From positions 1 to 41,685 of the forward strand of contig JAXDLV010000068.1 in NCBI GenBank assembly GCA_034666445.1: DNA of 41,685 nt. The letters run 5' to 3'. This DNA is from Chloroflexota bacterium. GTDB taxonomy: Bacteria > Chloroflexota > Dormibacteria > DASZGP01. Below the pieces are notes generated by a model. It searched no databases. It was not told the DNA's origin and saw nothing but the letters and a program-made list of their open reading frames with translations. This document shows, piece after piece, positions 7,921 to 40,784 of the stretch; the stretch's first letter is position 1, and each line of letters begins with the position of its first letter. The position numbers and the translations under genes are program-made.

Positions 7921-10231
7921 GTGCAGCCTCCGCGCCGGCCAGGCTGCCCGGCCCGGCCCTCGCAATGCTGAGCGCCGCCGCCTTGCAGTCGACCTCCCGC
8001 TCGTAATCGGCGGCGGCGCCGACACACGCCGGGCACCCACGGGTGCACTCGCAGGACGACACGAGGTCCGCAGCGGCCGCCAGGACGCGGTCGTGCAGGT
8101 CGAACAGCCGCGGACTGAGGCCGACGCCGCCCGGGAAGACGTCGTAGACGAAGACCGTCGCCCCGCCCGTCCGGGGGGAGCGCACCTGCACGGCGACGCC
8201 GAGGTCCCGTGGGTCGCACATCAGGTGCACCGCGGCGGTGTGGCGGAGCACGTGGGCCAGCCCCTGCAGTCCCGCCTGCAGCTCCAGCCGCGGGTAGGTG
8301 GCGGCCAGGTCGTCGTCGACGCGCAGCCAGTAGCCGGTGGTGTGGAGGTCGACCTGCGGCAGGTCGATGGGACCTGCGCCCACGGAGAGGTCCAGGTGAC
8401 GTCGCTGGCCACGATATTCAAGAAGATCCGCTTCCACACCCACGAGGCCGTGGGCGCGGGTGAGGTTCCCGGGGGCCGAGTCGAAGGCCTCCAGCACCTC
8501 CACGCTGGCGCTGCGGTCGGCGTCGGTGTAGTAGTCGACGTTGACCGGGCGCACATATGCCTTCTTCTCGCCCCAGTCGAGCTTGTCGACGTGGTACTGC
8601 TGCCCCTCGTGGATGTAGATGGCCTGGTCGTGCAGGAGGGTCTGGGCGGCGAACTGGTCCATCTCGCCGATGACGCGGGCGCCAATGCTGCCGGGGGCGG
8701 CCGCGGGCGCGTTGCTGGTGTCGATAATCACCACGTTCTCGGCCAGCACGGTGCGGAGGCTGACCTCCGCCGCGGGGAACGCCTCCGAGGACCAGAACCA
8801 GCGCCCCTCCGAGTGGTGCGCCTGGCCCTCGTCGGCGAGCAGGTCGAGCAGGTCGGCCACGTCGGCCGTGCCAAAGCGCTCACCGTCCGCCAGGGGAACC
8901 TCGAAGACCGACGCCTGCAGGTGCCCCAGCAGCACCAGCAGGTTGTCCGGGTCGATGAGGCCATGCTCCGGCGAGCGCCCCAGGAAGTACTCGGGGTGGT
9001 GCGCGAGGAACTGGTCGACGGGGCTGCTGGAGCACACCAGCACGCCAACGGCGGGCTCGTCGCGGCGGCCGGCGCGGCCCAGCTGCTGCCAGGTCGACGC
9101 GATGCTCCCGGGGTAGCCGCAGAGCACGGCGGCCTGCATCTGGCCGACGTCGATGCCCAGCTCCAGCGCGTTGGTGGCCACCACGCCCCGCACCGCCCCG
9201 CTGCGCAGGCCGCGCTCGATCTCGCGGCGCTGCCCCGGGAGATAGCCACCCCTGTAGCCGCGGACATCGCCGTGGCGGCCGAGGCGGTCGCTGAAGGACT
9301 GCTTGAGGTAGGTCAGCAGCACCTCGACCTGCAGACGGCTCCGCCCGAACACGATCGTCTGGGCGCCGCCGCTGAGGAACCGCGACGCGATCCGCTGGGT
9401 CTCCAGCATCGACGAGCGCCGGATGCCGAGCTCGGCGTTCACCACCGGCGGGTTGTAGAAGACCAGGCGCCGCGGCGGCGACGGGGCGCCGTTGTCGTCG
9501 ACCACCGCCACCGGCCGCTCCAGGACCTTGCTCGCCAGCTCGCCCGGGTTGGCGATGGTGGCCGAGGCCAGCAGGAAGGTGGGCGACGCGCCGTAGAAGT
9601 CGCAGATGCGCTTCATCCGCCGGACGACGTTGGCGAGGTGGCTGCCGAACACGCCTCGGTAGGCGTGGAGCTCGTCGATGACCACGTACTCCAGGTTCTG
9701 GAAGAGCTTCAGCCACTTGGTGTGGTGCGGCAGGATCGCGGAGTGCAGCATGTCGGGGTTGGTGATCACGACGTGGCCGGCCTCGCGAATGGCGGCCCGG
9801 GCGGCGGCCGGGGTGTCGCCGTCGTACGTGAACGTACGGATCCCCGCCTCGAGGTGGCCGGACAGCTCGTGCAGCTCGGCAAGCTGGTCCTGGGCCAGCG
9901 CCTTGGTGGGAAACATGTAGAGGGCCCGGGCGTCGGGGCGCTCCAGGACGCGGCTGAGGACCGGCAGGTTGTAGCAGAGGGTCTTGCCCGAGGCCGTGGG
10001 CGTCACCACCACGACGTCGCGGCCCGCGGCAGCGTGCTCGAAAACCTCGGCCTGGTGGCTGTAGAGCCGCTCGATGCCACGGGCCCGGAGGGCCTGGCGG
10101 AGACGCGGTGGCACCCCTGCCGGGACCTCGGCGTACCGCGCCGGGCGCCCCTCTACCAGGTGGTCGAGGCAGACCCCCTCACGAAACTCGCGATCGTCGA
10201 GGAGGCGATCCAGGATCTCGATGGCGCCCAT
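7898..10231 (-). CDS. mrfA: DEAD/DEAH-box SF2 helicase with C-terminal DUF1998 zinc domain, YprA/MrfA-like
   Basis: TPTASGKT (motif I), VVIDELH (DExH), LASAT, GRAGRR, and a C-terminal CECTRGCPACV...C four-Cys module. At 777 aa it is typical of the YprA/MrfA class. Confidence 0.85.
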   Translation of the reverse strand: MGAIEILDRLLDDREFREGVCLDHLVEGRPARYAEVPAGVPPRLRQALRARGIERLYSHQAEVFEHAAAGRDVVVVTPTASGKTLCYNLPVLSRVLERPDARALYMFPTKALAQDQLAELHELSGHLEAGIRTFTYDGDTPAAARAAIREAGHVVITNPDMLHSAILPHHTKWLKLFQNLEYVVIDELHAYRGVFGSHLANVVRRMKRICDFYGASPTFLLASATIANPGELASKVLERPVAVVDDNGAPSPPRRLVFYNPPVVNAELGIRRSSMLETQRIASRFLSGGAQTIVFGRSRLQVEVLLTYLKQSFSDRLGRHGDVRGYRGGYLPGQRREIERGLRSGAVRGVVATNALELGIDVGQMQAAVLCGYPGSIASTWQQLGRAGRRDEPAVGVLVCSSSPVDQFLAHHPEYFLGRSPEHGLIDPDNLLVLLGHLQASVFEVPLADGERFGTADVADLLDLLADEGQAHHSEGRWFWSSEAFPAAEVSLRTVLAENVVIIDTSNAPAAAPGSIGARVIGEMDQFAAQTLLHDQAIYIHEGQQYHVDKLDWGEKKAYVRPVNVDYYTDADRSASVEVLEAFDSAPGNLTRAHGLVGVEADLLEYRGQRRHLDLSVGAGPIDLPQVDLHTTGYWLRVDDDLAATYPRLELQAGLQGLAHVLRHTAAVHLMCDPRDLGVAVQVRSPRTGGATVFVYDVFPGGVGLSPRLFDLHDRVLAAAADLVSSCECTRGCPACVGAAADYEREVDCKAAALSIARAGPGSLAGAEAALAAAGPA

Positions 10232-10993: not shown

Positions 10994-11833
10994 TCAGTTG
11001 GACCACGCCGTGATCTCCCTCCCCAGCCAGCTGGCCAGCTCCCGGTTGGGAGCCGCGAAGTGCTCCTCCAGGCGGGCTCGAACGTCGGGCTCCATCTCGG
11101 GGTAGGCGGCCTCGTCGCGGTTCAGCCTGTCGAGCCGGCGTGCCAGCCCGGGGGCGATGCTCCACGCACGGACCCGCATCATCGCCTTGCGCAGCCGCCA
11201 GGAGCGGAAGCTGTGGCTGGCGTTGAAGACCTCGCCGAGGTTGGGCGGGGTGAAGGCCTCCTCCACGCCGAGGAAGCGATGGAGCTCGGACAGCACTGCC
11301 TCCGGGGCATCCACCATCTCCTCCAGGATCATCACGTGGATGGCGGCGCGGGGGTAATGCTCCGCCACGTTGCGGAGCTGGGCGGCGTAGTGGCCCAGGC
11401 CGATGTAGGCGCCGGGCTGAGCCGGGCCCGGTACCAGCGGGCGCGGGTCGTCGATGTCCATCGCCTCGGCAAAGGAGCGGAGGTCGGTGCCACGACGGCG
11501 CACCTGCCAGTAGTGCGAGTAGGCGCGCTCGATCGGGTTGCGCAGGATGGCGACCAGCCGGGCGTCGGGCAGAAGCTCCGCCATCCGCCGCGGCGCGTCG
11601 GGGTCGACCATGTAGGTGGGGGTCGCCTCCCCCACCGCCTTCTCCGAACCGGCGCGGGCGAAGTGCGCCAGGTACCACTCCGGACCCTCGCGGTGGCGGC
11701 GGTCGAAGTAGCGCAGCTCCTTCTCGGGCGCCATGTAGACGTCCGGGTGGGCGCCGAGGTAGCGCGCCAGGGTCGTCGTCCCCGACTTGGGCGCGCCGAT
11801 GACCAGGAAGGTGGGTAGCCGGGACTCCGCCAT
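10994..11833 (-). CDS. Sulfotransferase domain protein (PAPS-dependent)
   Basis: FLVIGAPKSGTTTLARYL (5'-PSB loop) and ILRNPIERAYSHYW (3'-PB motif). It ends 28 nt upstream of the sortase. Confidence 0.8.
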   Translation of the reverse strand: MAESRLPTFLVIGAPKSGTTTLARYLGAHPDVYMAPEKELRYFDRRHREGPEWYLAHFARAGSEKAVGEATPTYMVDPDAPRRMAELLPDARLVAILRNPIERAYSHYWQVRRRGTDLRSFAEAMDIDDPRPLVPGPAQPGAYIGLGHYAAQLRNVAEHYPRAAIHVMILEEMVDAPEAVLSELHRFLGVEEAFTPPNLGEVFNASHSFRSWRLRKAMMRVRAWSIAPGLARRLDRLNRDEAAYPEMEPDVRARLEEHFAAPNRELASWLGREITAWSN

Positions 11834-11885: not shown

Positions 11886-12464
11886 ATGGGACAACCAGGC
11901 GGCAACGCGGTCGAGACCGAGCTCAAATACCTGGGCGCCGACGCCGGCGCCGTCCGCGCCGCGCTGCAGGCGGCCGGTGCGAAGCTGGAGTCGCCGCGTC
12001 AGCTGGAGGTCAACCTGGTCTTTGATGACGAGGCGGGCAGCCTGCGCGCCGCCGGCCGCCTGCTGCGCCTGCGCGACGGGCACGAGCTGACGGTCAAGCT
12101 GCCGCTGGAGGACGACCGCTTCAAGGCGCAGCGGGAGATCACGGTCCACGTCGCCGACGGCCCCGTCGAGGAGCTCCTGGGGGGCCTCGGCTACCAGGCC
12201 CGGGCTCGCTACGAGAAGTACCGCGAGGGCTGGGACCTCGACGGCATGTGGGTCACGATCGACGACCTGCCCTTCCTTGGCACCGTCGTCGAGATCGAGG
12301 GCGACCGCGGCGGCATCGACGCGGCGGCCAAAAAGCTCGGGCTGGGGCAGGCGCAGACGTCCACCCGCAACTACCTGGCGCTCTTCGCCGACTACGCGGA
12401 GGCCCACCGCCTGTCCCCCGACCAGATGACGTTCGCGGCGGCGGGGTCGCAGCCGGGGGCCTAG
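11886..12464 (+). CDS. CYTH domain protein (class IV adenylate cyclase / triphosphate tunnel metalloenzyme family)
   Basis: N-terminal VETELKY (ExExK signature), LRLRDGHELTVK and WVTIDDLPFLGTVVEIEG. Start set at ATG 11886 rather than TTG 11865. Confidence 0.8.
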   Translation: MGQPGGNAVETELKYLGADAGAVRAALQAAGAKLESPRQLEVNLVFDDEAGSLRAAGRLLRLRDGHELTVKLPLEDDRFKAQREITVHVADGPVEELLGGLGYQARARYEKYREGWDLDGMWVTIDDLPFLGTVVEIEGDRGGIDAAAKKLGLGQAQTSTRNYLALFADYAEAHRLSPDQMTFAAAGSQPGA

Positions 12465-12513
12465 GTTGTTCGGCTCACGAGATCTGCCGACAGCAGCGGC
12501 TGATCTGTAGTCA

Positions 12514-12693
12514 CCAGGGCGGCCGACGCCGCACATCCTGGGGGTTCATCCGGCCGGCGCTGCGACCAGGCCTTTCACATCGCACCGCGCCGGCCTGCCT
12601 GCGCGGGCGTCCGCGCTGACATCAGCTTTAGTTCTCTACTCTCCCGCCCGCTCCGGAAATCACCCCCAGGATGCGCGACGCCGTCCGCCCTGG
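12514..12693. repeat. Left stem-loop module of the foldback (32-bp stem enclosing 116 nt)
   Basis: 12514-12545 pairs with 12662-12693: 28/32 Watson-Crick, and 31/32 with G-U if read as minus-strand RNA. An inner 9-bp helix GGCCGGCGC 12552-12560 pairs with GCGCCGGCC 12587-12595. Confidence 0.6.
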
Positions 12694-12878
12694 ACTGCGC
12701 ACCACGGCGCCGCTGCTCTGATCCGCGATGTCCTCATCGGAGGTGGGATCAGCCGTTGACGGTCTGTCGACAGCGGTACGGCAAGTGCAGCGCTGTTGAG
12801 CTGCCGAAGGTCGCCTGAGGCAGGTTTCACCTCTAACAAGTCATCGCGGATAGAGCGACAGCTGCCCCCGCGCGCAGT

Positions 12879-13054
12879 CCCGAGTGCCGGGTGCTGCAGA
12901 CCCGGGGGCGATTTACGGAGCGGGCGGGATGTGCATCTGGCATGAGCTACGCAGATCACGGCCGCACGCGCAGTAGGCCGGCGCAGTGGCATCGGACTGC
13001 TGGACGCAGCGCCGGCCGCATGAGCCCTCGGGTCTGCGGCTCCCGGCGCCAGGG
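12879..13054. repeat. Right stem-loop module of the foldback (31-bp stem enclosing 114 nt)
   Basis: 12879-12909 pairs with 13024-13054: 25/31 Watson-Crick, and 28/31 with G-U if read as plus-strand RNA. An inner 9-bp helix pairs 12976-12984 with 13009-13017. Confidence 0.6.
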
Positions 13055-13103
13055 CCACCCGATACCCGCGGCAGCTGTCACGTTATCTCGTGAGCTGTAC
13101 CCC

Positions 13104-14198
13104 TTAGGGCGGGGCGCCCGCCTTCAGCCGCTCGATGATCGCGTCGGCCACCTGGCTGGTGCCCACGGCGGTGGGGTCGTTGCGGTCCGCCTTCATGTCG
13201 TAGGTCACGTTCTTGCCCTCGGCGATCACCGCGGCGATGGCGTCCTCCAGCCGCTGGGCGGCGTCGGTCTCCTTCAGGTAGCGCAGCATCATGACGCCCG
13301 AGAGCAGCATGGCCATCGGGTTCATCTTGTTCTGGCCGGCGTACTTGGGGGCGCTGCCATGGGTGGCCTCGAAGACCGCGATGCCATTGCCGACATTGGC
13401 GCCGGGAGCCAGCCCCAGGCCGCCGATCAGGCCGGCGCCGAGGTCCGACACGATGTCGCCGTAGAGGTTGGGCAGCACCAGCACGTCGTACAGGTCAGGG
13501 TTCTGGACGAGCTGCATGCACATGTTGTCGACGATGCGGTCCTCGAACTCGATGTCGGGGTAGTCGCGCGCGACCTCCTGGGCGACGTGGAGGAAGAGGC
13601 CGTCGGTGAACTTCATGATGTTGGCCTTGTGCACCGCGGTGACCTTCTTGCGGCCATTGTCGCGGGCGTAGTCGAACGCCGCCTGGACGACCCGGCGGCT
13701 GCCGAAGATGGAGATTGGCTTGATCGTGATGCCGGAGTCCTCGCGGATCGTGCGGCCGGCAGCCTCGCTGAGGAACTCGATCACCCTGTGGGCCTCGTCG
13801 GTCCCCTCCTGGAACTCGATGCCGGCGTAGGCGTCCTCGGTGTTCTCGCGCACCAGGACGAGGTCGATGTGCTCATAGCGGGAGCGGACCCCCGGGTAGC
13901 TCTTGCAGGGACGGAACAGGGCGAAGAGGTCGAGCTCCTTGCGCAGCGCTACGTTGACGGAGCGGATGCCCTTGCCGATCGGGGTGGTGATGGGCCCCTT
14001 GATGGCCACCTTGTTGCGGCGGATCGACTCCAGCACATGCTCGGGGAGCGGCGTGCCGTGCTCCTCCATGACGTTCTCACCCGCCTGGAGGACCTCCCAC
14101 TCGAAGTCGACGCCGGTGGCATCAAGCACGCGCATCGTGGCCTCGCTGAGCTCGGGGCCGACGCCATCGCCGGGGATCATGGTGGTCTTGTAGGCCAT
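13104..14198 (-). CDS. Isocitrate/homoisocitrate dehydrogenase family protein (NAD-IDH-like)
   Basis: [61 protein letters not shown] and [19 protein letters not shown]. Start set at ATG 14198, with a GAAAGGGAAG purine-rich SD upstream and 23 nt after the previous gene. The track start at 14312 overlaps that gene. Confidence 0.85.
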
Positions 14199-17293: not shown

Positions 17294-17369
17294 TGGTGCC
17301 GAGAGGCGGATTCGAACCGTCGACACCTGGTTCTTCAGACCAGTGCTCTACCAACTGAGCTATCTCGGC
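17294..17369 (-). tRNA. tRNA-Phe (anticodon GAA), CCA encoded
   Basis: Minus-strand cloverleaf: GCCGAGA/TCTCGGC acceptor, GCTC-AGTTGGTA-GAGC, CTGGT-CTGAAGA-ACCAG, T arm GACGG-TTCGAAT-CCGCC (one A-C mispair), then A-CCA. Confidence 0.88.
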
Positions 17370-17387: not shown

Positions 17388-17461
17388 TGGGCGGAGCAGG
17401 GCTCGAACCTGCGACCTCCTCGGTGTAAGCGAGGCGCTCGTACCAGCTGAGCTATCCGCCC
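17388..17461 (-). tRNA. tRNA-Val (anticodon TAC), no encoded CCA
   Basis: Minus-strand cloverleaf: GGGCGGA/TCCGCCC acceptor, GCTC-AGCTGGTAC-GAGC, CCTCG-CTTACAC-CGAGG, GCAGG-TTCGAGC-CCTGC. It lies 18 nt upstream of tRNA-Phe. Confidence 0.9.
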
Positions 17462-19174: not shown

Positions 19175-20104
19175 TCAGGCGGAGCGGAGTCTCCCTATGA
19201 GGCGGTCGCGGTCGACCTGGCGCTCGGCGTGGTAGGAGCTGCGCACCAGCGGGCCTGACTCCACCCAGCGGAAGCCGAGGTCGAGCGCCTCGACCTTCAG
19301 CGCGTCGAACTCGTCGGGGTGGTAGTAGCGCACCAGCTCGTGGTGCTTGACGCTGGGGCGCAGGTACTGGCCGATGGTCAGGATCTCGACGCCGGCGGCG
19401 CGGATCTCGCCCATCAGCTCCGACAGCTCGTCGCGGGTCTCCCCCAGGCCGACCATGAAGCCGGTCTTCGACTGGGTGCCGGGATCGAGCTCGCGGGCCC
19501 GCCTGAGCAACTCGAGGGACTGATCGAGGTCGGCCTTGGGGCGGACGCGGCGGTAGAGGCGGCGGACGGTCTCGACGTTGTGGTTCAGGATCTCCGGCTG
19601 CGCCTCCATCACCGTCGCCAGCGCATCCCAGTTGCCCTGGAAGTCGGGCGTAAGCACCTCGATCGAGGTGGTCGGGCAGAGCTTCCGCGTCTGGCGGATC
19701 GTCTCCGCGAAGAAACGCGCCCCGCCGTCGGGCAGGTCGTCGCGGTCCACCGACGTGATCACGGCGTGGACCAGGTTGAGCTTGGCGATCGACTCCGCGA
19801 CGCGCCGCGGCTCGTCCTCGTCCAGCCACGTCGGCCGGCCGGTCTTCACCGCGCAGAAGGCGCAGGCGCGCGTGCAGGTGTCGCCCAGGATCATGAACGT
19901 CGCCGTGCCGGCGGTCCAGCACTCGCCGATGTTGGGGCAGTGGGCCTCCTCGCATACGGTGTGGAGGCGCTCCTCGCGCATCAGCTCCTTCAGCCGTGAG
20001 TAGGTCGGTCCCGCAGGAAGGCGCACCTTAAGCCAGTCGGGGCGGCGGCCACCGAACGCTTCGGGGCTGCCGCCAACGCCCGCCAGGACCGGGAGCTCCT
20101 CCAT
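19175..20104 (-). CDS. lipA: Lipoyl synthase
   Basis: [13 protein letters not shown] plus the radical-SAM motif [10 protein letters not shown], and [10 protein letters not shown]-like [11 protein letters not shown]. Start at ATG 20104, 2 nt after the E2 stop. The track ORF to 20563 is a spurious extension through E2. Confidence 0.92.
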
Positions 20105-20106
20105 CG

Positions 20107-29558: not shown

Positions 29559-30851
29559 ATGAGTCCCTTGCGGTCTGCCGCCACGGCCGCCGCGGAGGTG
29601 CCCGGCCGGGGCCTCAGCTGGCGACCAGGGCTGGGGACGGCGGTGGTCGCGGTCCTCTGCGTGGTCTTCGCGGGCTGGCTGTTCACGCCTGCGTGGGCGG
29701 ACCAGCGCGGCCCCGACAGCAAGGACTTCTATGCCGTCGCGACCCTGTCGGCGCGCGGTGGCAATCCATATGACCCGGCGCAGCTGGGCGCGGAGGAGGA
29801 CCGCCTCTACAACCGGGGCGGGGCCGTCCGCGTCGGCGACCCGGGCTATTACGCGTTCAACCCGTACGGCTACCCCCCGCTGGTAACCTCCGCCCTTCGG
29901 CTGGCGGAGGGCGTCGGCCCCGACGCCTTCTACCTCGGCAGCGCCATCCTGCTGCTGGCCGCCGGCGTCGCGGGCTTCGAGCTGCTGCTGGCGACGCTCC
30001 ACTGGCGGCGACGCTGGCTGGCCCGGCTGCTGTTCCTCGCCTCCACCCCCATGGCCCTCTCTGTCTTCACGGGCAACCCGTCGCCCATCCTGCTGCTCGC
30101 CTGGGCCGGCGCGCTGTGGCTGATGCAGCGCGGGCGGCCCGTCCTGGGAGGCGCGGTCCTCTCCGTGTGCCTGCTCAAACCGCCTGTTGGCCTCCCGGTG
30201 GCCGCAGCCCTCCTGCTGGTCGGCCCGGGGCGCCGCCCGGTGGCAACGGCGGGGTTCGCGGGTGGCGCCATCGCCTGGGCGGCAGCCAGCGTGGCGCTGG
30301 GTGGGGTCGAAGCTCACCTTCGCTGGATCGAGGTGCTCGTGGGCTACGGAGGCGGCCTGGGGCCCGGCGCGCGTGCGTCAGCGTTCTCCCAGCTCGGCCT
30401 GGTCGGGGTGCCTGCGCTGCTGATGGACCACGTGCCCACCGTCGTCGCGGTCGGCGCCGTCGGCGCGGTCCTTGGGGCCCTGGTCGCGTGGGCCTGGCGC
30501 GCGCCCGGGATGCAACCGGCGGTGAAGGGTGAGCGGTGGGTGGCGCTGGCCCTGCTGGTGGCCGCCGGCCTGGCCCTCACCCCCTACGTCCACCTCAACG
30601 ACCTGGTCCTGGAGGCGTTCCCGGTCCTGGTCCTCGCCTCCAGCCGGCTGGACATCGCCGGCCGCCTCACGCTCCTGGGTGCCGCCCTCGGCGCGCCGCT
30701 GCGGATCGCGCTCTCGCTGGTGACATCGGTGTTCCTCGGCAGCGCCCCGGGCACCGGCAGCACCCCCGGCTGGGGCGTGGCGCTGACGGCGATGCTGGTC
30801 GTGTGCCTGGTCCTGGTGGCGCGCCGGCCGGGCGCGGCGGTGTCGCCATGA
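29559..30851 (+). CDS. DUF2029/GT87-like polytopic membrane glycosyltransferase candidate
   Basis: KDFYAVATLSARGGNPYDP after TM1 resembles the DUF2029 (PimE-type) signature as I recall it, followed by about 10 further TM segments. Start set at ATG 29559, the first ATG before TM1. Confidence 0.6.
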   Translation: MSPLRSAATAAAEVPGRGLSWRPGLGTAVVAVLCVVFAGWLFTPAWADQRGPDSKDFYAVATLSARGGNPYDPAQLGAEEDRLYNRGGAVRVGDPGYYAFNPYGYPPLVTSALRLAEGVGPDAFYLGSAILLLAAGVAGFELLLATLHWRRRWLARLLFLASTPMALSVFTGNPSPILLLAWAGALWLMQRGRPVLGGAVLSVCLLKPPVGLPVAAALLLVGPGRRPVATAGFAGGAIAWAAASVALGGVEAHLRWIEVLVGYGGGLGPGARASAFSQLGLVGVPALLMDHVPTVVAVGAVGAVLGALVAWAWRAPGMQPAVKGERWVALALLVAAGLALTPYVHLNDLVLEAFPVLVLASSRLDIAGRLTLLGAALGAPLRIALSLVTSVFLGSAPGTGSTPGWGVALTAMLVVCLVLVARRPGAAVSP

Positions 30852-32263
30852 ACACGCCCGCGCTGAAGGGCGGCGACCCCCTTCGGCTGGCGATCGCCGT
30901 GTCCGCGCTGGTGGTGGCCGGCGCGGTCACGGAGCTGCTCCTCATGGCCGGCGTCCCCGGGCTGGCCTGGCCCCTGGTGCTGGCGGCGATGGTGGCGACG
31001 GTGGCCCTCTGGCGCCCGCGGCCCGAGGCCCTCGCCGCCCTGTTGCTGGTGGCCGGTGTCGAGCTGCTGCTGCCCGTACACACTGGCGGCGGCCGCTACA
31101 ACGACTGGCTCCTGCACTACGAGATCAGCCTCCACTACGCAGGGCTGCCGACGCCCGTGGACCCCGGCTTCCTCTCCGCCAGGACGCCGTTGTTCCACCA
31201 GCTCGCCGGGGCGGTGCTCGCGCTGCGTGCGGACTACTGGGTCTTCCAGCTGGTGGCGGTGTTCCTGAACAGCCTGTGGCTCTGGCCCGCCGGGCTGCTC
31301 CTCGGCGAGCGCGGCGGCGGACGGGCACGCCTGCTGGCGGTGGCGCTGTCGCCATTCCTGCTGGCCTACGGCGTGTACACCTGGCCGTGGGCCTTCGCGG
31401 GGTTCTTCATCCTCGCCGCCACCTACCTCGCCGGACGCCCCGGTCGGATGGCGTGGGCCGGCACCGGGGTGGCCATCGGCGCGGCCTTCCTGGCCCACTC
31501 CGCCACCGCCGGCTACGGCCTGGGACTGACGGCGTTCTTCGCCGCGCGGGAGCGCGACCGGCTGCTGCCCGCGCTGGGGATGGGGGCGCTGACCGCGGCG
31601 ACCCAGCTGCCGTGGACCTTCGCCATCACCGGTGGGGCCGGACCGTTAGGTGTGCTGCTGGCCGTGGACCCGGTCGTGCAGCGCGTCCCGGTGGACGTCT
31701 GGCTGCTGACCCGCCTGCTGGTCGTGGCACACTCCCTCATCCCGACGCCACCGCTGCTGCGCGGCTGGGAGGTGCCGGACACAGTGATCGTGGTGTTCGT
31801 CCTCAGCCTGCCGGGGGCCCTGATGGGCCTCCTCCTGGTCGCGCGCCGCTGGCTGCGCCGGCCAGGGCCGCTGCCCTGGATGCTGGCGTTCGGCGCCGGC
31901 CTCGGCCTGCTGGCCTATCCCCCGCAGCAGTTCCTCAGCGGGATGCTGGACGCGCTCTTCCCGGGCGTGCTGCTGCTGACCGTGGCCGTGGTTGCGGCGA
32001 TCCCGGATTCGATCGTGCGTCGGCTTCTGACCGTCCAGGCAGGACTCGCCGCGCTCTTCCTCGCCGCACTGGCGCTGGTCTCGGCGCTGCCGTCAGGCGC
32101 GGACCCCAATGTCGCACTCAAGCTTGGCTACGGGGCGCGCTTCGCGGTGGAGGCGCTGACGCCGGTGCCGGGCGTCGGCCTCCTTGCCCTCGCCGCGGTG
32201 ACCGGGTTTATCGCGCTTCGGCCTGCGCCCTCGTCGCCTCCCAGCGCAGGTAGCTCTCCATGA
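30848..32263 (+). CDS. Polytopic membrane protein, GT-C-like
   Basis: ATG 30848 overlaps the upstream stop (ATGA). There are about 12 TM segments, and a loop RYNDWLLHYEISLHYAGLPTP...ARTPLFHQL follows the early TMs. The 3' end overlaps the prfB 3' end by 56 nt. Confidence 0.5.
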   Translation: MNTPALKGGDPLRLAIAVSALVVAGAVTELLLMAGVPGLAWPLVLAAMVATVALWRPRPEALAALLLVAGVELLLPVHTGGGRYNDWLLHYEISLHYAGLPTPVDPGFLSARTPLFHQLAGAVLALRADYWVFQLVAVFLNSLWLWPAGLLLGERGGGRARLLAVALSPFLLAYGVYTWPWAFAGFFILAATYLAGRPGRMAWAGTGVAIGAAFLAHSATAGYGLGLTAFFAARERDRLLPALGMGALTAATQLPWTFAITGGAGPLGVLLAVDPVVQRVPVDVWLLTRLLVVAHSLIPTPPLLRGWEVPDTVIVVFVLSLPGALMGLLLVARRWLRRPGPLPWMLAFGAGLGLLAYPPQQFLSGMLDALFPGVLLLTVAVVAAIPDSIVRRLLTVQAGLAALFLAALALVSALPSGADPNVALKLGYGARFAVEALTPVPGVGLLALAAVTGFIALRPAPSSPPSAGSSP

Positions 32264-38235: not shown

Positions 38236-40784
38236 CACTCGTACCTCAGGCTGCCGACAACGGATGCGCGCGATGCCCGCCGCGCCGGGACGATCACCGC
38301 CAAAAGGCTCCCCGCAACCGCCACCAGGAGGACGCCGACGATCACGTTCCAGGGCACCACGTAGGCGGGCTGGAAGCCGAGGCTGGAGCCGGCCCGCACC
38401 ATCACCGCCACCAGGAGGAGGCCGACGCCGGTGCCCAGCAGGGCGCCGAACAGGCCGAACAGGCCCGACTCGGCGAGGATCATGTTGCGCACCTGGCCGC
38501 GGGTGGCGCCGACAGCGCGGAGCAGGGCCAGCTCGTGGCTGGACTCGCTGACGTTGAGCAGGATGGTGGTGACCACCGACAGCAGGCCGAGGATGACGCC
38601 GGTCAGGCCAAGCGCGCTCATCAGGAGCAGCAGGGAGTTGAGCCCCCGCTCCACCCCGGCGCGGACGTCGGCGACGGACTCCACCTGCATACCGTACTTC
38701 TCCGCGGCGCCCTTGAGGTCGGCGTCGAAGCCGGCCGGCACGGGACGCTCGGTGACCACCTGGAGGATGTTGAAGCCGTCCAGGCCGAAGTCCTGGCGCG
38801 CGTTGCTGAGGGAGATGACCACCGACTCGTCGCCCGCCGGGGAGGGCAGGCTGTGGGCGACGATGGCCGCGACGCGGTACTGCAGGTCCGCGCGGGAGCC
38901 GGTCAGGCCGATGCTGTCACCGACGTGGAGGTTCCGCGCCGACGCGACCCGGGTGGGCAGGAACACGGCGCGGCTGCCCTCCAGCTGGGTGTAGGGACTG
39001 GCGCCCCCGCCGTCGAGGAACTGCAGCCGCGACCCCGCGGCGTAGTCAAGCGGGTTGATCGCCACCAGGTTCACCGCCCGGTCGTCGGACTTCACAGCGA
39101 TGAAGCTGATCGGCGATGTCGCGGTAACGCCCTTGGTCCTGGCGATGTCTTGGCGGATCGCCTCGGTCTGGTGCACGGGCGACACCACCAGCCGGTCGGA
39201 CACGAAGATGCTGTCGACCCAGCCCTGGCCGGCTCCCAGCGCGCCCTGGCTCAGCCCCGACACGCCAATCACCAGCGCGGTGCTCACCAGCAGCCCGGCG
39301 ATCGTCAGGGCGCTGCGGTTGGGCCGCCGCAGGATGCTGTTGCGCGCCAGCCGGGTCTCCACCGGCGCCACCAGCTGGAAGGGCCGGCTGAGGACCCAGG
39401 TCACCGGCCGCACCAGCACGGGGGTGATGGCGACCACGCCCAGGAACACCAGCACCGTCCCCGCCGCGGTCAGCGCCAGCCGGCTGCCGCTGAGGCCGGA
39501 CTGGGAGAGGCCGGCGCGGAAGGCGGCGAGGAGCAGCCCGAGCCCCACCAGCAGCGCGCCGCCGCCCAGGAGGCTGACCCGGCGCTGGCTGCGCTCCACA
39601 GTGAACTGACCCTGCGGCCTGATCGCCTCCAGCGGCGGCACCGCCATCGCGCGGGTCGCGGGGAACACCGCCATGATCACCGTCGCCACCAGGCCGAGCA
39701 CCGCCACCAGCGCGGTGTAGCCGGGGTCGAACACGAAGGCCAGCCCAGGCTGGTCGCTGACGCCGCGCAGGTAGCCGATCAGCTCAACCGCCAGCAGCAC
39801 CCCGAGGCCGATGCCCAGCACCGTCCCGATGGCGCCCAGGATGCCGGCCTGGAGCAGGAAGAGGTTGCGGATCCAGCCCGGGGTGGCTCCCGCGGCCCGC
39901 AGCAGGCCGATCTCCCGGCGCCGCTCCTGCACGGTGACCGCGAGGTTGTTGTAGATCAGGAAGAGGCCGATGCCCAGCGCCAGCAGGGCGAAGAACACCA
40001 GCACCGGCTGTATCTCCAGGTAGGGGTCGCTCTGGCCGCCGACAAACGCGTGGTTGTCGCGCACCGAGTACTCCTCGATGGCCTGCTCGCGGAGGTGCTG
40101 GCGGAAGGGGCCGTAGGTGCAGGCGTCGTAGCTGCCCTCGCAGGTCGAGTGCAGGCCGGTGCTGACCTGCGTCACCCGCGAGCCGAGGTTGAACGCCTTC
40201 TGCGCCTGCGCCAGCGACACGAAGATCACCGCGCCGAACGACGACTGCGAGAACGCGGTGTTGCTGAGCAGGCCCTTCACGGTGTACTCGTCGGGGCCGG
40301 TGGTGGTGAAGAGGGTGATCTTGCTGCCGACGCCGAGCCTGTTATCGCCGGCCCACTTCTCGTCAAGCAGCACGGTGCCCTTGTCGGTGGCGGACAGGCC
40401 GTCGCCCTTCGCGACGGTGAACGGGTGCAGCTTCTGCTCCGCCTCGGGGTCGACACCCAGCATCTGGAAGGTCGTGGAGCGCCCGTCGACCAGGCCGGTG
40501 AGCCGCTTGGAGACCACGGGGGCCGCGGTGGTCACCTCGGGCAGCTTCCGGACGAGGTCCACCATCGCCGGGCTGAAGCCGGTGTCGGAGAAGGCAAACA
40601 CCTCGGCGTCAGCGCTGCCGATCAGGTCGGTGGCAGCCTGGCGCAGCTCGGCGCGCAGGGCCAGGGACGAGAGCTGGGTGCCCAGGATGAGGCCCACCCC
40701 CAGCGCCACCGCCAGGACGGTGAGCAGGGAGCGCTCGGCCCTAGAGGCCGAGTTGCGCCAGGCGAGAGATAAGAGGAGCGGCAC
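38235..40784 (-). CDS. ABC transporter permease with two FtsX-type domains (MacB/YbbP-like)
   Basis: Two repeats of TM + large extracytoplasmic domain + 3 TMs, with an N-terminus LSLAWRNSASRAERSLLTVLAVALGVG typical of this family. Start set at GTG 40784 (the track's 40832 is also possible). Confidence 0.85.
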   Translation of the reverse strand: MPLLLSLAWRNSASRAERSLLTVLAVALGVGLILGTQLSSLALRAELRQAATDLIGSADAEVFAFSDTGFSPAMVDLVRKLPEVTTAAPVVSKRLTGLVDGRSTTFQMLGVDPEAEQKLHPFTVAKGDGLSATDKGTVLLDEKWAGDNRLGVGSKITLFTTTGPDEYTVKGLLSNTAFSQSSFGAVIFVSLAQAQKAFNLGSRVTQVSTGLHSTCEGSYDACTYGPFRQHLREQAIEEYSVRDNHAFVGGQSDPYLEIQPVLVFFALLALGIGLFLIYNNLAVTVQERRREIGLLRAAGATPGWIRNLFLLQAGILGAIGTVLGIGLGVLLAVELIGYLRGVSDQPGLAFVFDPGYTALVAVLGLVATVIMAVFPATRAMAVPPLEAIRPQGQFTVERSQRRVSLLGGGALLVGLGLLLAAFRAGLSQSGLSGSRLALTAAGTVLVFLGVVAITPVLVRPVTWVLSRPFQLVAPVETRLARNSILRRPNRSALTIAGLLVSTALVIGVSGLSQGALGAGQGWVDSIFVSDRLVVSPVHQTEAIRQDIARTKGVTATSPISFIAVKSDDRAVNLVAINPLDYAAGSRLQFLDGGGASPYTQLEGSRAVFLPTRVASARNLHVGDSIGLTGSRADLQYRVAAIVAHSLPSPAGDESVVISLSNARQDFGLDGFNILQVVTERPVPAGFDADLKGAAEKYGMQVESVADVRAGVERGLNSLLLLMSALGLTGVILGLLSVVTTILLNVSESSHELALLRAVGATRGQVRNMILAESGLFGLFGALLGTGVGLLLVAVMVRAGSSLGFQPAYVVPWNVIVGVLLVAVAGSLLAVIVPARRASRASVVGSLRYE

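Follow-up and report, generated by a model that had tools for sequence, protein, structure and literature searches.

A nested 623-bp quasi-palindrome built of two self-folding units between convergent CYTH and isocitrate dehydrogenase family genes of a Dormibacteria genome

Contig JAXDLV010000068.1 (assembly GCA_034666445.1) comes from a Chloroflexota bacterium placed in the GTDB lineage Dormibacteria; DASZGP01. In the window analyzed here, which is the whole 41,685-nt stretch of forward strand from position 1, a gene for a CYTH-domain protein converges with a gene of the isocitrate/isopropylmalate dehydrogenase (IDH) family. Their stop codons are 639 nt apart (gap 12465-13103) in a genome whose gaps are mostly shorter than 100 bp, and the gap holds the 623-bp quasi-palindromic element that is the subject of this report. 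The nearest relative of the CYTH protein is 69% identical in amino acid sequence (locus L001) and that of the IDH protein is 89% identical; the homologues of the two proteins place the window in Candidatus Dormibacterota.

The same element sequence, without a single difference, is present on a second contig, JGI Ga0467049_0000596, which also encodes the exact CYTH protein (P0001) and on which the IDH gene is likewise called. This contig is 99.99% identical to the window. No strain variants that could inform on covariation were found. The first 25 nt of the element are also present in Logan contig L003 (SRR24887429), which stops 33 nt past the CYTH stop codon and thus 25 nt into the element. 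An end at this place is close to the behavior of a k=31 assembler at a repeat boundary. However, a gene is also interrupted at the other end of the same contig, and low coverage is a simpler or equally likely explanation.

The original prediction, made by aligning the letters by hand, held that the gap is a foldback whose arms have diverged, with no coding function and not of recent origin as a duplication. Recomputation bears this out, including the positions of the two stop codons, the 639-nt distance, the perfectly matching 11-nt ends, the central palindrome, and the 8 nt left between the element and each stop codon without a target-site duplication in the flanks (Table 1). The internal blocks also match as had been described: 12546-12569 agrees with the reverse complement of 13000-13023 at 22/24 positions, 12642-12667 with that of 12904-12929 at 24/26, and 12715-12730 with that of 12842-12856 at 15/16 with one indel. 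When 12473-12791 is aligned globally to the reverse complement of 12792-13095, 223 of the 292 ungapped columns are identical (76%) and a further 39 columns contain gaps; a MAFFT alignment, in which fewer gaps are opened, yields 200/303 (66%). Arm identity is therefore 66-76% according to gap treatment, which corresponds to 24-34% divergence. The question of whether this exceeds chance was put to 200 dinucleotide shuffles, which scored -129 +/- 16 (maximum -76) against 89 for the real arms, a value about 13 standard deviations above them. The stretches between the blocks are related and diverged as proposed, but unevenly so: uninterrupted matches of 10 bases or more number five, where 1.24 are expected (P = 0.002).

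The gap is predicted to fold at -372.5 kcal/mol on the plus strand (z score -12.6) and at -395.9 kcal/mol on the minus strand (z score -13.4), and none of 20 shuffles reached values as low. The spread of GC content among the three codon positions (highest minus lowest) is 0.5-0.7 in the flanking genes and collapses to 0.02-0.10 across the element, which is the longest non-periodic stretch of the window by this measure. Thus, the element is noncoding. An internal open reading frame (ORF) of 132 aa has no Pfam match.

Each arm also folds alone, at -160 to -176 kcal/mol, and the cores of about 190 nt within the arms have fold z scores of -4.9 to -8.4. The foldback is nested, with two units of about 255 nt placed head to head around a 111-nt spacer that is the least conserved part of the element. 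A structure predicted to be common to both arms consists of a closing stem (P0), a long stem (P1), and a three-way junction that bears two further hairpins, P2 (the GGCCGGCGC hairpin) and P3. Because of this common structure, it can be seen that the four conserved blocks recognized originally all lie on P0, on P2, or on P3 plus the junction. Among the proposals first made for the gap, that of two paralogous structured units in inverted orientation fits this anatomy best, given that the arms fold alone and their stems are compensated. For its further claim, that these are genes for RNAs, searches for a promoter or terminator consensus, for an Rfam family, and for homologues in relatives all came back empty.

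Another early proposal was one long hairpin transcript. If a full-length RNA were made, the full-length duplex would be favored thermodynamically, since at equilibrium it is 44-60 kcal/mol more stable than the pair of local folds. The arms, however, differ by 30 transitions and 39 transversions, which include 13 wobble-compatible changes on one strand and 17 on the other, and with no wobble bias, nothing indicates selection on pairing between the arms.

Local structure, in contrast, is conserved between the two copies. From one unit to the other, the strands of P1 agree at only some 66% and 53% of positions (34-47% different), yet they are 88% and 81% paired within their own units. The junction bases together with the P2 and P3 stems are identical at 59 of 64 positions (92%), compared with 42-68% for P1, P0, and the loops. 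The P2 stem is near-invariant while its loop varies, and the unpaired junction bases are about 90% conserved. Between the two copies, 14 of 79 consensus pairs have changed on both sides and still pair, a count that is circular because the structure was derived from the same two sequences.

We therefore used a cross-prediction test, in which a structure predicted from one arm alone is examined for its survival in the other and compared with 5000 randomizations of the observed substitutions. When both units are read outward from the spacer (the left unit on the minus strand, the right unit on the plus strand), the kept pairs number 69 versus 62.0 +/- 3.7 (P = 0.04) in one direction and 77 versus 63.3 +/- 3.7 (P = 0.0004) in the other, and the compensated pairs number 11 versus 4.4 (P = 0.002) and 8 versus 4.3 (P = 0.05). 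Statistics for the reverse orientation are poorer (P = 0.47 and 0.009), and its consensus fold is -74.75 kcal/mol compared with -107.5 kcal/mol for the outward reading. Strand assignment by wobble pairs in the local stems was also tried, and the outcome (10 for the outward reading versus 5) is not significant. It is known that hairpin-templated (template-switch) repair acts on quasi-palindromes, which are hotspots for it (PMC7202029). With only two sequences to compare, selection is inseparable from such repair.

In the outward reading, both units carry the motif CACCTC(C/T), in GATCCCACCTCC and TTTCACCTCT (12739-12750 and 12825-12834). The motif resembles the anti-Shine-Dalgarno end of 16S rRNA, and the opposite strand presents GGAGGTG, which is like a ribosome-binding site. 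A small ORF behind the GGAGGTG of the spacer was considered and rejected: a usable start codon is present on the left side only (a 20-codon ORF), with no mirrored partner.

Table 1. Features of the CYTH/IDH gap and its flanking genes, in window coordinates.
Feature	Position	Strand	Description	Basis
CYTH-domain protein gene	11886-12464	+	Class IV adenylate cyclase-like, 192 aa; stop TAG 12462-12464	Pfam PF01928
Left spacer	12465-12472		GTTGTTCG, 8 nt, CYTH stop to element	Sequence
Whole quasi-palindrome (foldback)	12473-13095		623 bp, nested	Arm alignment, fold z score, noncoding, no Rfam family
Left unit	12473-12730	- (tentative)	About 258 nt; minus reading pairs slightly better	Local folds, consensus structure with right unit, wobble count
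Left terminal inverted repeat	12473-12483		GCTCACGAGAT; 12475-12484 pairs with 12720-12728 as P0 of left unit	11/11 with 13085-13095
Left P1, first strand	12514-12545		Pairs with 12662-12693; 32 nt, 88% complementary	Inverted-repeat search
Left hairpin P2	12552-12595		GGCCGGCGCTGCG 12552-12564 with CACCGCGCCGGCC 12583-12595	Consensus structure
Left P3 and conserved junction	12603-12661		GCGGGCG 12603-12609 with CGCCCGC 12645-12651; junction TCCGGAAATC 12652-12661	Consensus structure
Left P1, second strand	12662-12693			Inverted-repeat search
Central spacer	12731-12841		111 nt, small hairpins; symmetry centre CAGCGCTG 12788-12795	62% identity, 11 gap columns
Right unit	12842-13095	+ (tentative)	About 254 nt, inverted paralogue of left unit	Local folds, consensus structure, wobble count
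Right P1, first strand	12879-12909		Pairs with 13024-13054; 31 nt, 81% complementary	Inverted-repeat search
Right conserved junction and P3	12910-12969		Junction GATTTACGGA 12910-12919; 12920-12926 with 12963-12969	Consensus structure
Right hairpin P2	12976-13017		12976-12988 with 13005-13017	Consensus structure
Right P1, second strand	13024-13054			Inverted-repeat search
Right terminal inverted repeat	13085-13095		ATCTCGTGAGC; 13084-13093 pairs with 12844-12852 as P0 of right unit	11/11 with 12473-12483
Right spacer	13096-13103		TGTACCCC, 8 nt, element to IDH stop	Sequence
IDH family gene	13104-14198	-	364 aa; stop TAA 13106-13104 (TTA on plus strand)	Pfam PF00180, homologues

The element belongs to no known family. 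In the covariance-model check called for at the outset, Rfam 15 at gathering thresholds gave no match within it. In a permissive search, the best hits scored 24.8 bits where 197 are needed and 19.9 where 43.2 are needed, and none was mirrored in both arms. Plasmid and phage collections also held no match to the element.

Comparison with relatives was possible at ten loci (L001, L008, L010, L012, L013, and L015-L019) that share the order helicase ... CYTH, slot, IDH, M29 peptidase, with the CYTH gene pointing toward the slot and the IDH and M29 genes pointing toward it from the other side. The slot is empty at four of these loci, where the stop codons are 18 nt (L015) or 5 nt (L016) apart or overlap by 4 nt (L018 and L019), and these four are the loci with the most similar IDH (87-89% amino acid identity). 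Elsewhere it holds a gene for a 115-aa rhodanese (L008 and L010) or for a class III cyclase-AAA_16-TPR protein of 1079-1112 aa (L001, L012, L013, and L017). The element is absent from the orthologous site in 10/10 loci. Because the same junction in relatives is either empty or filled by unrelated genes, the element is an insertion, or what remains of an insertion, particular to this lineage. The insertion point is able to accept DNA only within the few bases between two stop codons. Neither tblastn nor tblastx detected similarity of the element to the cyclase or rhodanese genes, no trace of flanking-gene sequence was found in either arm, and the 8 + 8 flanking bases GTTGTTCG and TGTACCCC contain no direct repeat between them and cannot be aligned with the junctions of the relatives.

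Some further features of these loci were evident. Across the ten loci, the slot is a hotspot of gene-content change in Dormibacterota, and the genes inserted in it are always on the IDH strand. At L001, IDH is called as two pieces of 73 and 291 aa (8928-10021 of that locus), which points to a frameshift, to a pseudogene, or to misassembly. Only the window and L001 have a sulfotransferase gene (window 10994-11833) between sortase and CYTH, whereas the sortase gene adjoins CYTH in the other relatives; this is a second indel beside the element.

The window as a whole is core chromosome, with genes for pyruvate/2-oxoacid dehydrogenase, SecA, RF-2, FtsEX, and IF-1 and for tRNAs. Pfam and gene scans found no transposase, integrase, RAYT (the transposase of repetitive extragenic palindromic [REP] sequences), or reverse transcriptase among its genes, and GC skew showed no switch that would mark a replication origin or terminus. 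Its sole Rfam and ARAGORN matches are tRNA-Gly(GCC) at 470-544, tRNA-Phe(GAA) at 17294-17369, and tRNA-Val(TAC) at 17388-17461. Apart from the CYTH/IDH gap, about 1.36 kb at 30852-32207 hold no ORF that passes a filter on GC content at third codon positions; this stretch has the highest GC content and the strongest AT skew of the window, and the long ORFs at 30536-32263 (plus strand) and 30584-31498 (minus strand) have no Pfam match. Where genes for an FtsX/MacB-like permease and an ABC ATPase overlap, the coding sequence contains an inverted repeat of 27 nt around a loop of 74 nt (40636-40763; 81% complementary, fold z score -3.6).

What kind of element might this be? A usual REPIN, which is a doublet of REP sequences forming a hairpin, measures about 100 bp. 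REPINs consist of two inverted REPs and a spacer, and they are non-autonomous and depend on RAYT (PMC3337134). The element is likewise made of two inverted, hairpin-forming extragenic units and a spacer, and as a whole it folds back, which is also true of bacterial interspersed mosaic elements (BIMEs). As with REPINs and BIMEs, it is noncoding, non-autonomous, and located between genes, where REPs favor convergent pairs; its complementarity is kept as the sequence drifts; and, as with REPINs, there is no target-site duplication, none being expected for transposition of the REPIN kind (PMC3337134, PMC3184786).

The resemblance has limits. A unit of the element is about 255 nt long and has a three-way junction, whereas REPs are stem-loops of about 20-40 nt with copy numbers in the tens to hundreds. 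The element measures 623 bp rather than about 100 bp, was seen in one copy among the window and 17 loci of relatives, and has no RAYT gene in its window. Its arms are also far more diverged than are members of a REPIN population that is active.

Miniature inverted-repeat transposable elements (MITEs) classically fold into long stem-loops and are intergenic, and those of bacteria are generally shorter than 200 bp, with some of about 400 bp (PMC3184786). A foldback MITE had been among the possibilities first listed. In keeping with this, and with foldback elements of the eukaryotic kind, the element has 11/11 terminal inverted repeats, no transposase, long stem-loop potential, an intergenic position, and presence or absence at an orthologous site. 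A MITE would also be expected in several genomic copies related to the ends of an insertion sequence; the window has one copy and the 17 loci have none. The target-site duplication of a MITE, however, was looked for and is missing, the inverted symmetry spans the whole element and not only its termini, and 623 bp is longer than the bacterial examples described (PMC3184786).

Taken together, the inverted hairpin doublet with its spacer, the perfect termini, the lack of a target-site duplication, the noncoding character, and the presence or absence at an orthologous site lead us to propose, tentatively and at a probability of roughly 40%, that this is a low-copy or relic non-autonomous element of the REPIN/foldback kind that now serves as the 3' ends of both transcription units. 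Several observations weigh against this proposal. No second copy was recovered from the window or from about 130 kb of relatives' loci (17 loci) by searches with the core blocks (up to three mismatches), blastn, nhmmer, and a covariance model of the core, all of which returned only the two arms. A 23-nt core block, CCGCCCGCTCCGNAAATCNCCCC, in genome and metagenome collections and a 20-nt version in a viral collection produced only chance matches. These were four single-arm matches, of which the one at L006 lies inside a repeat-protein gene. This negative is weak, because the scans did not return the host's own contig and the host lineage is therefore absent from the scanned collections. With the host genome not among them, the scans say little on copy number.

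The absence of a target-site duplication counts here as well, as does a length that exceeds the described bacterial MITEs and is about six times that of a REPIN. No promoter or intrinsic-terminator consensus, including a U tract, was found in the element on either strand. With arms that are 24-34% diverged, DNA of no use would have lasted a long time in a genome this compact. Finally, a junction core that is 92% identical while the stems drift is more like that of a functional RNA or a protein-binding site.

The main competing interpretation is that the two units are paralogous head-to-head genes for a new structured RNA of about 255 nt, the left on the minus strand and the right on the plus strand, read outward from the spacer. 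In each RNA, the closing stem and the long, covarying P1 would lead to a three-way junction, and the conserved core of this junction is predicted to bind a protein or ligand. The compensatory changes that preserve P1 in both copies, the 59/64 identity of the junction and of the P2 and P3 stems compared with 42-68% elsewhere, the clustering of identity runs, and the core fold z scores of -8.4 and -6.3 all agree with RNA genes. So does the preference for the outward reading in consensus fold, in wobble pairs, and in retention statistics. Persistence to 24-34% divergence suggests constraint, and RNA genes account for the near-invariant core and for the long persistence better than a REPIN-like element does.

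The size of the units is within the range of large bacterial noncoding RNAs such as 6S, OLE, GOLLD, HEARO/omega RNAs, and raiA, which share with them a long covarying stem and a conserved multi-helix junction. Unlike those RNAs, the units have no Rfam match, no conservation across species, and no promoter or terminator, and they are present as an inverted pair. The spacer holds no promoter-like site, and the units are absent from the orthologous site in ten relatives' loci and from all other DNA that was fetched. The wobble asymmetry of 10 versus 5 is not significant, and covariation in a pair of sequences is inseparable from hairpin-templated repair. Moreover, conservation falls largely on stems and variation largely on loops, which is the opposite of many functional RNAs. 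On balance, we regard RNA genes as a doubtful explanation, although a serious one. A more specific version seems unlikely: that the units encode an undescribed three-way-junction RNA of about 255 nt that is confined to one Dormibacterota lineage and kept as a divergent pair, with P1 and the core (GAUUUMCGGA / GCGGGCG / GGCCGGCGC) as a putative binding site. If it held, the foldback appearance would be a by-product of inverted duplication of a hairpin-shaped gene.

Perhaps the element is instead a neutral scar. After a double-strand break or the loss of a slot gene, fold-back priming might have duplicated local DNA inversely, and the arms would then have drifted while template-switch repair kept their stems. 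The slot is unstable in relatives, where it is empty or holds a rhodanese or cyclase gene, and the closest relative by CYTH (L001, 69%) has a cyclase gene there. Neither the absence of a target-site duplication nor the unselected look of the arm differences (30 transitions versus 39 transversions, no wobble bias) speaks against such an origin; both favor it, as does the standing of quasi-palindromes as template-switch hotspots (PMC7202029). A scar made of local DNA is nonetheless difficult to reconcile with arms that contain no trace of a cyclase, rhodanese, or flanking gene. Hairpin-templated repair also leaves unexplained the roughly 90% conservation of unpaired junction bases, and 623 bp of inert DNA would have had to survive to 24-34% divergence where gaps are mostly shorter than 100 bp. 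We consider this origin rather improbable.

There is even less to recommend an oversized terminator or insulator, working in both directions, that arose on the spot for the purpose of keeping the two convergent transcription units apart, and we give this reading little credence. TRIT in mycobacteria is a terminator-like repeat between convergent genes. The same description applies to SPRITE in pneumococcus (cited in PMC3184786). The element shares with these repeats a very stable, GC-rich hairpin directly after the stop codons of two convergent genes that is usable both ways, and by beginning 8 nt past each stop it presents the same hairpin to both polymerases. Its position fits an oversized bidirectional terminator, which was among the first proposals. 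However, the element is 10-20 times larger than such repeats, lacks a U tract, and is nested with a junction core, and termination explains neither the three-way junction nor the 111-nt spacer.

The other clean convergent gap of the window, 20004-20106, contains a single compact GC-rich hairpin of about 35 nt (GGCGGCGGCC...GGCUGCCGCC, stem of about 15 bp) that offers a local example of an ordinary bidirectional terminator; the element is about 15-20 times its size. Because four relatives manage with junctions of -4 to +18 nt, with stops that abut or overlap, and because the gap at 20004-20106 has only this small hairpin, the element is dispensable for termination as such.

Chimeric reads and assemblies are known to give rise to inverted repeats. 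That a fold-back chimera or a similar artefact of assembly is at work here is very unlikely, given that some 70-100 differences plus indels separate the arms where artefacts are near-perfect, that both flanks are the correct syntenic genes and are not mirrored, and that the identical sequence is present on JGI Ga0467049_0000596 and its first 25 nt on a Logan contig.

Under the proposal that we favor, that of a low-copy or relic REPIN/foldback-like element, a palindromic and non-autonomous DNA that is or once was mobile would have inserted at a convergent junction of -4 to +18 nt. The hairpin shape of each unit may have been kept since a folded single strand, of DNA or RNA, was the form that mattered; alternatively, hairpin-templated repair may have restored the stems. 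We infer that the element is transcribed. Each convergent transcript would then meet a GC-rich hairpin of about 255 nt at 8 nt after its stop codon, and it is plausible that both 3' ends are blocked or stabilized in this manner, such that the element acts as a barrier for, and protects, the two messages. A polymerase that read through the center would yield an imperfect RNA duplex of about 300 bp.

To our knowledge, bacterial chromosomes seldom contain long palindromes, and the noncoding elements of Dormibacterota, a phylum without cultured members, are almost unexplored. We suggest that the element represents a new variant among extragenic palindromic or foldback elements, unusual in its large size and nested in its build. 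It is an orphan locus so far, and the claim is accordingly a modest one. Should further copies be found, they would define a relative of REPIN-type elements that is much larger and bears a junction, and they would be a marker for an unknown mobilizing enzyme. If the units are instead a pair of RNA genes, they would represent a new class of structured RNA. In either case, the locus amounts to a natural experiment: because the same two genes abut or overlap in relatives, the effect of a 623-bp hairpin on convergent transcription is directly comparable among them.

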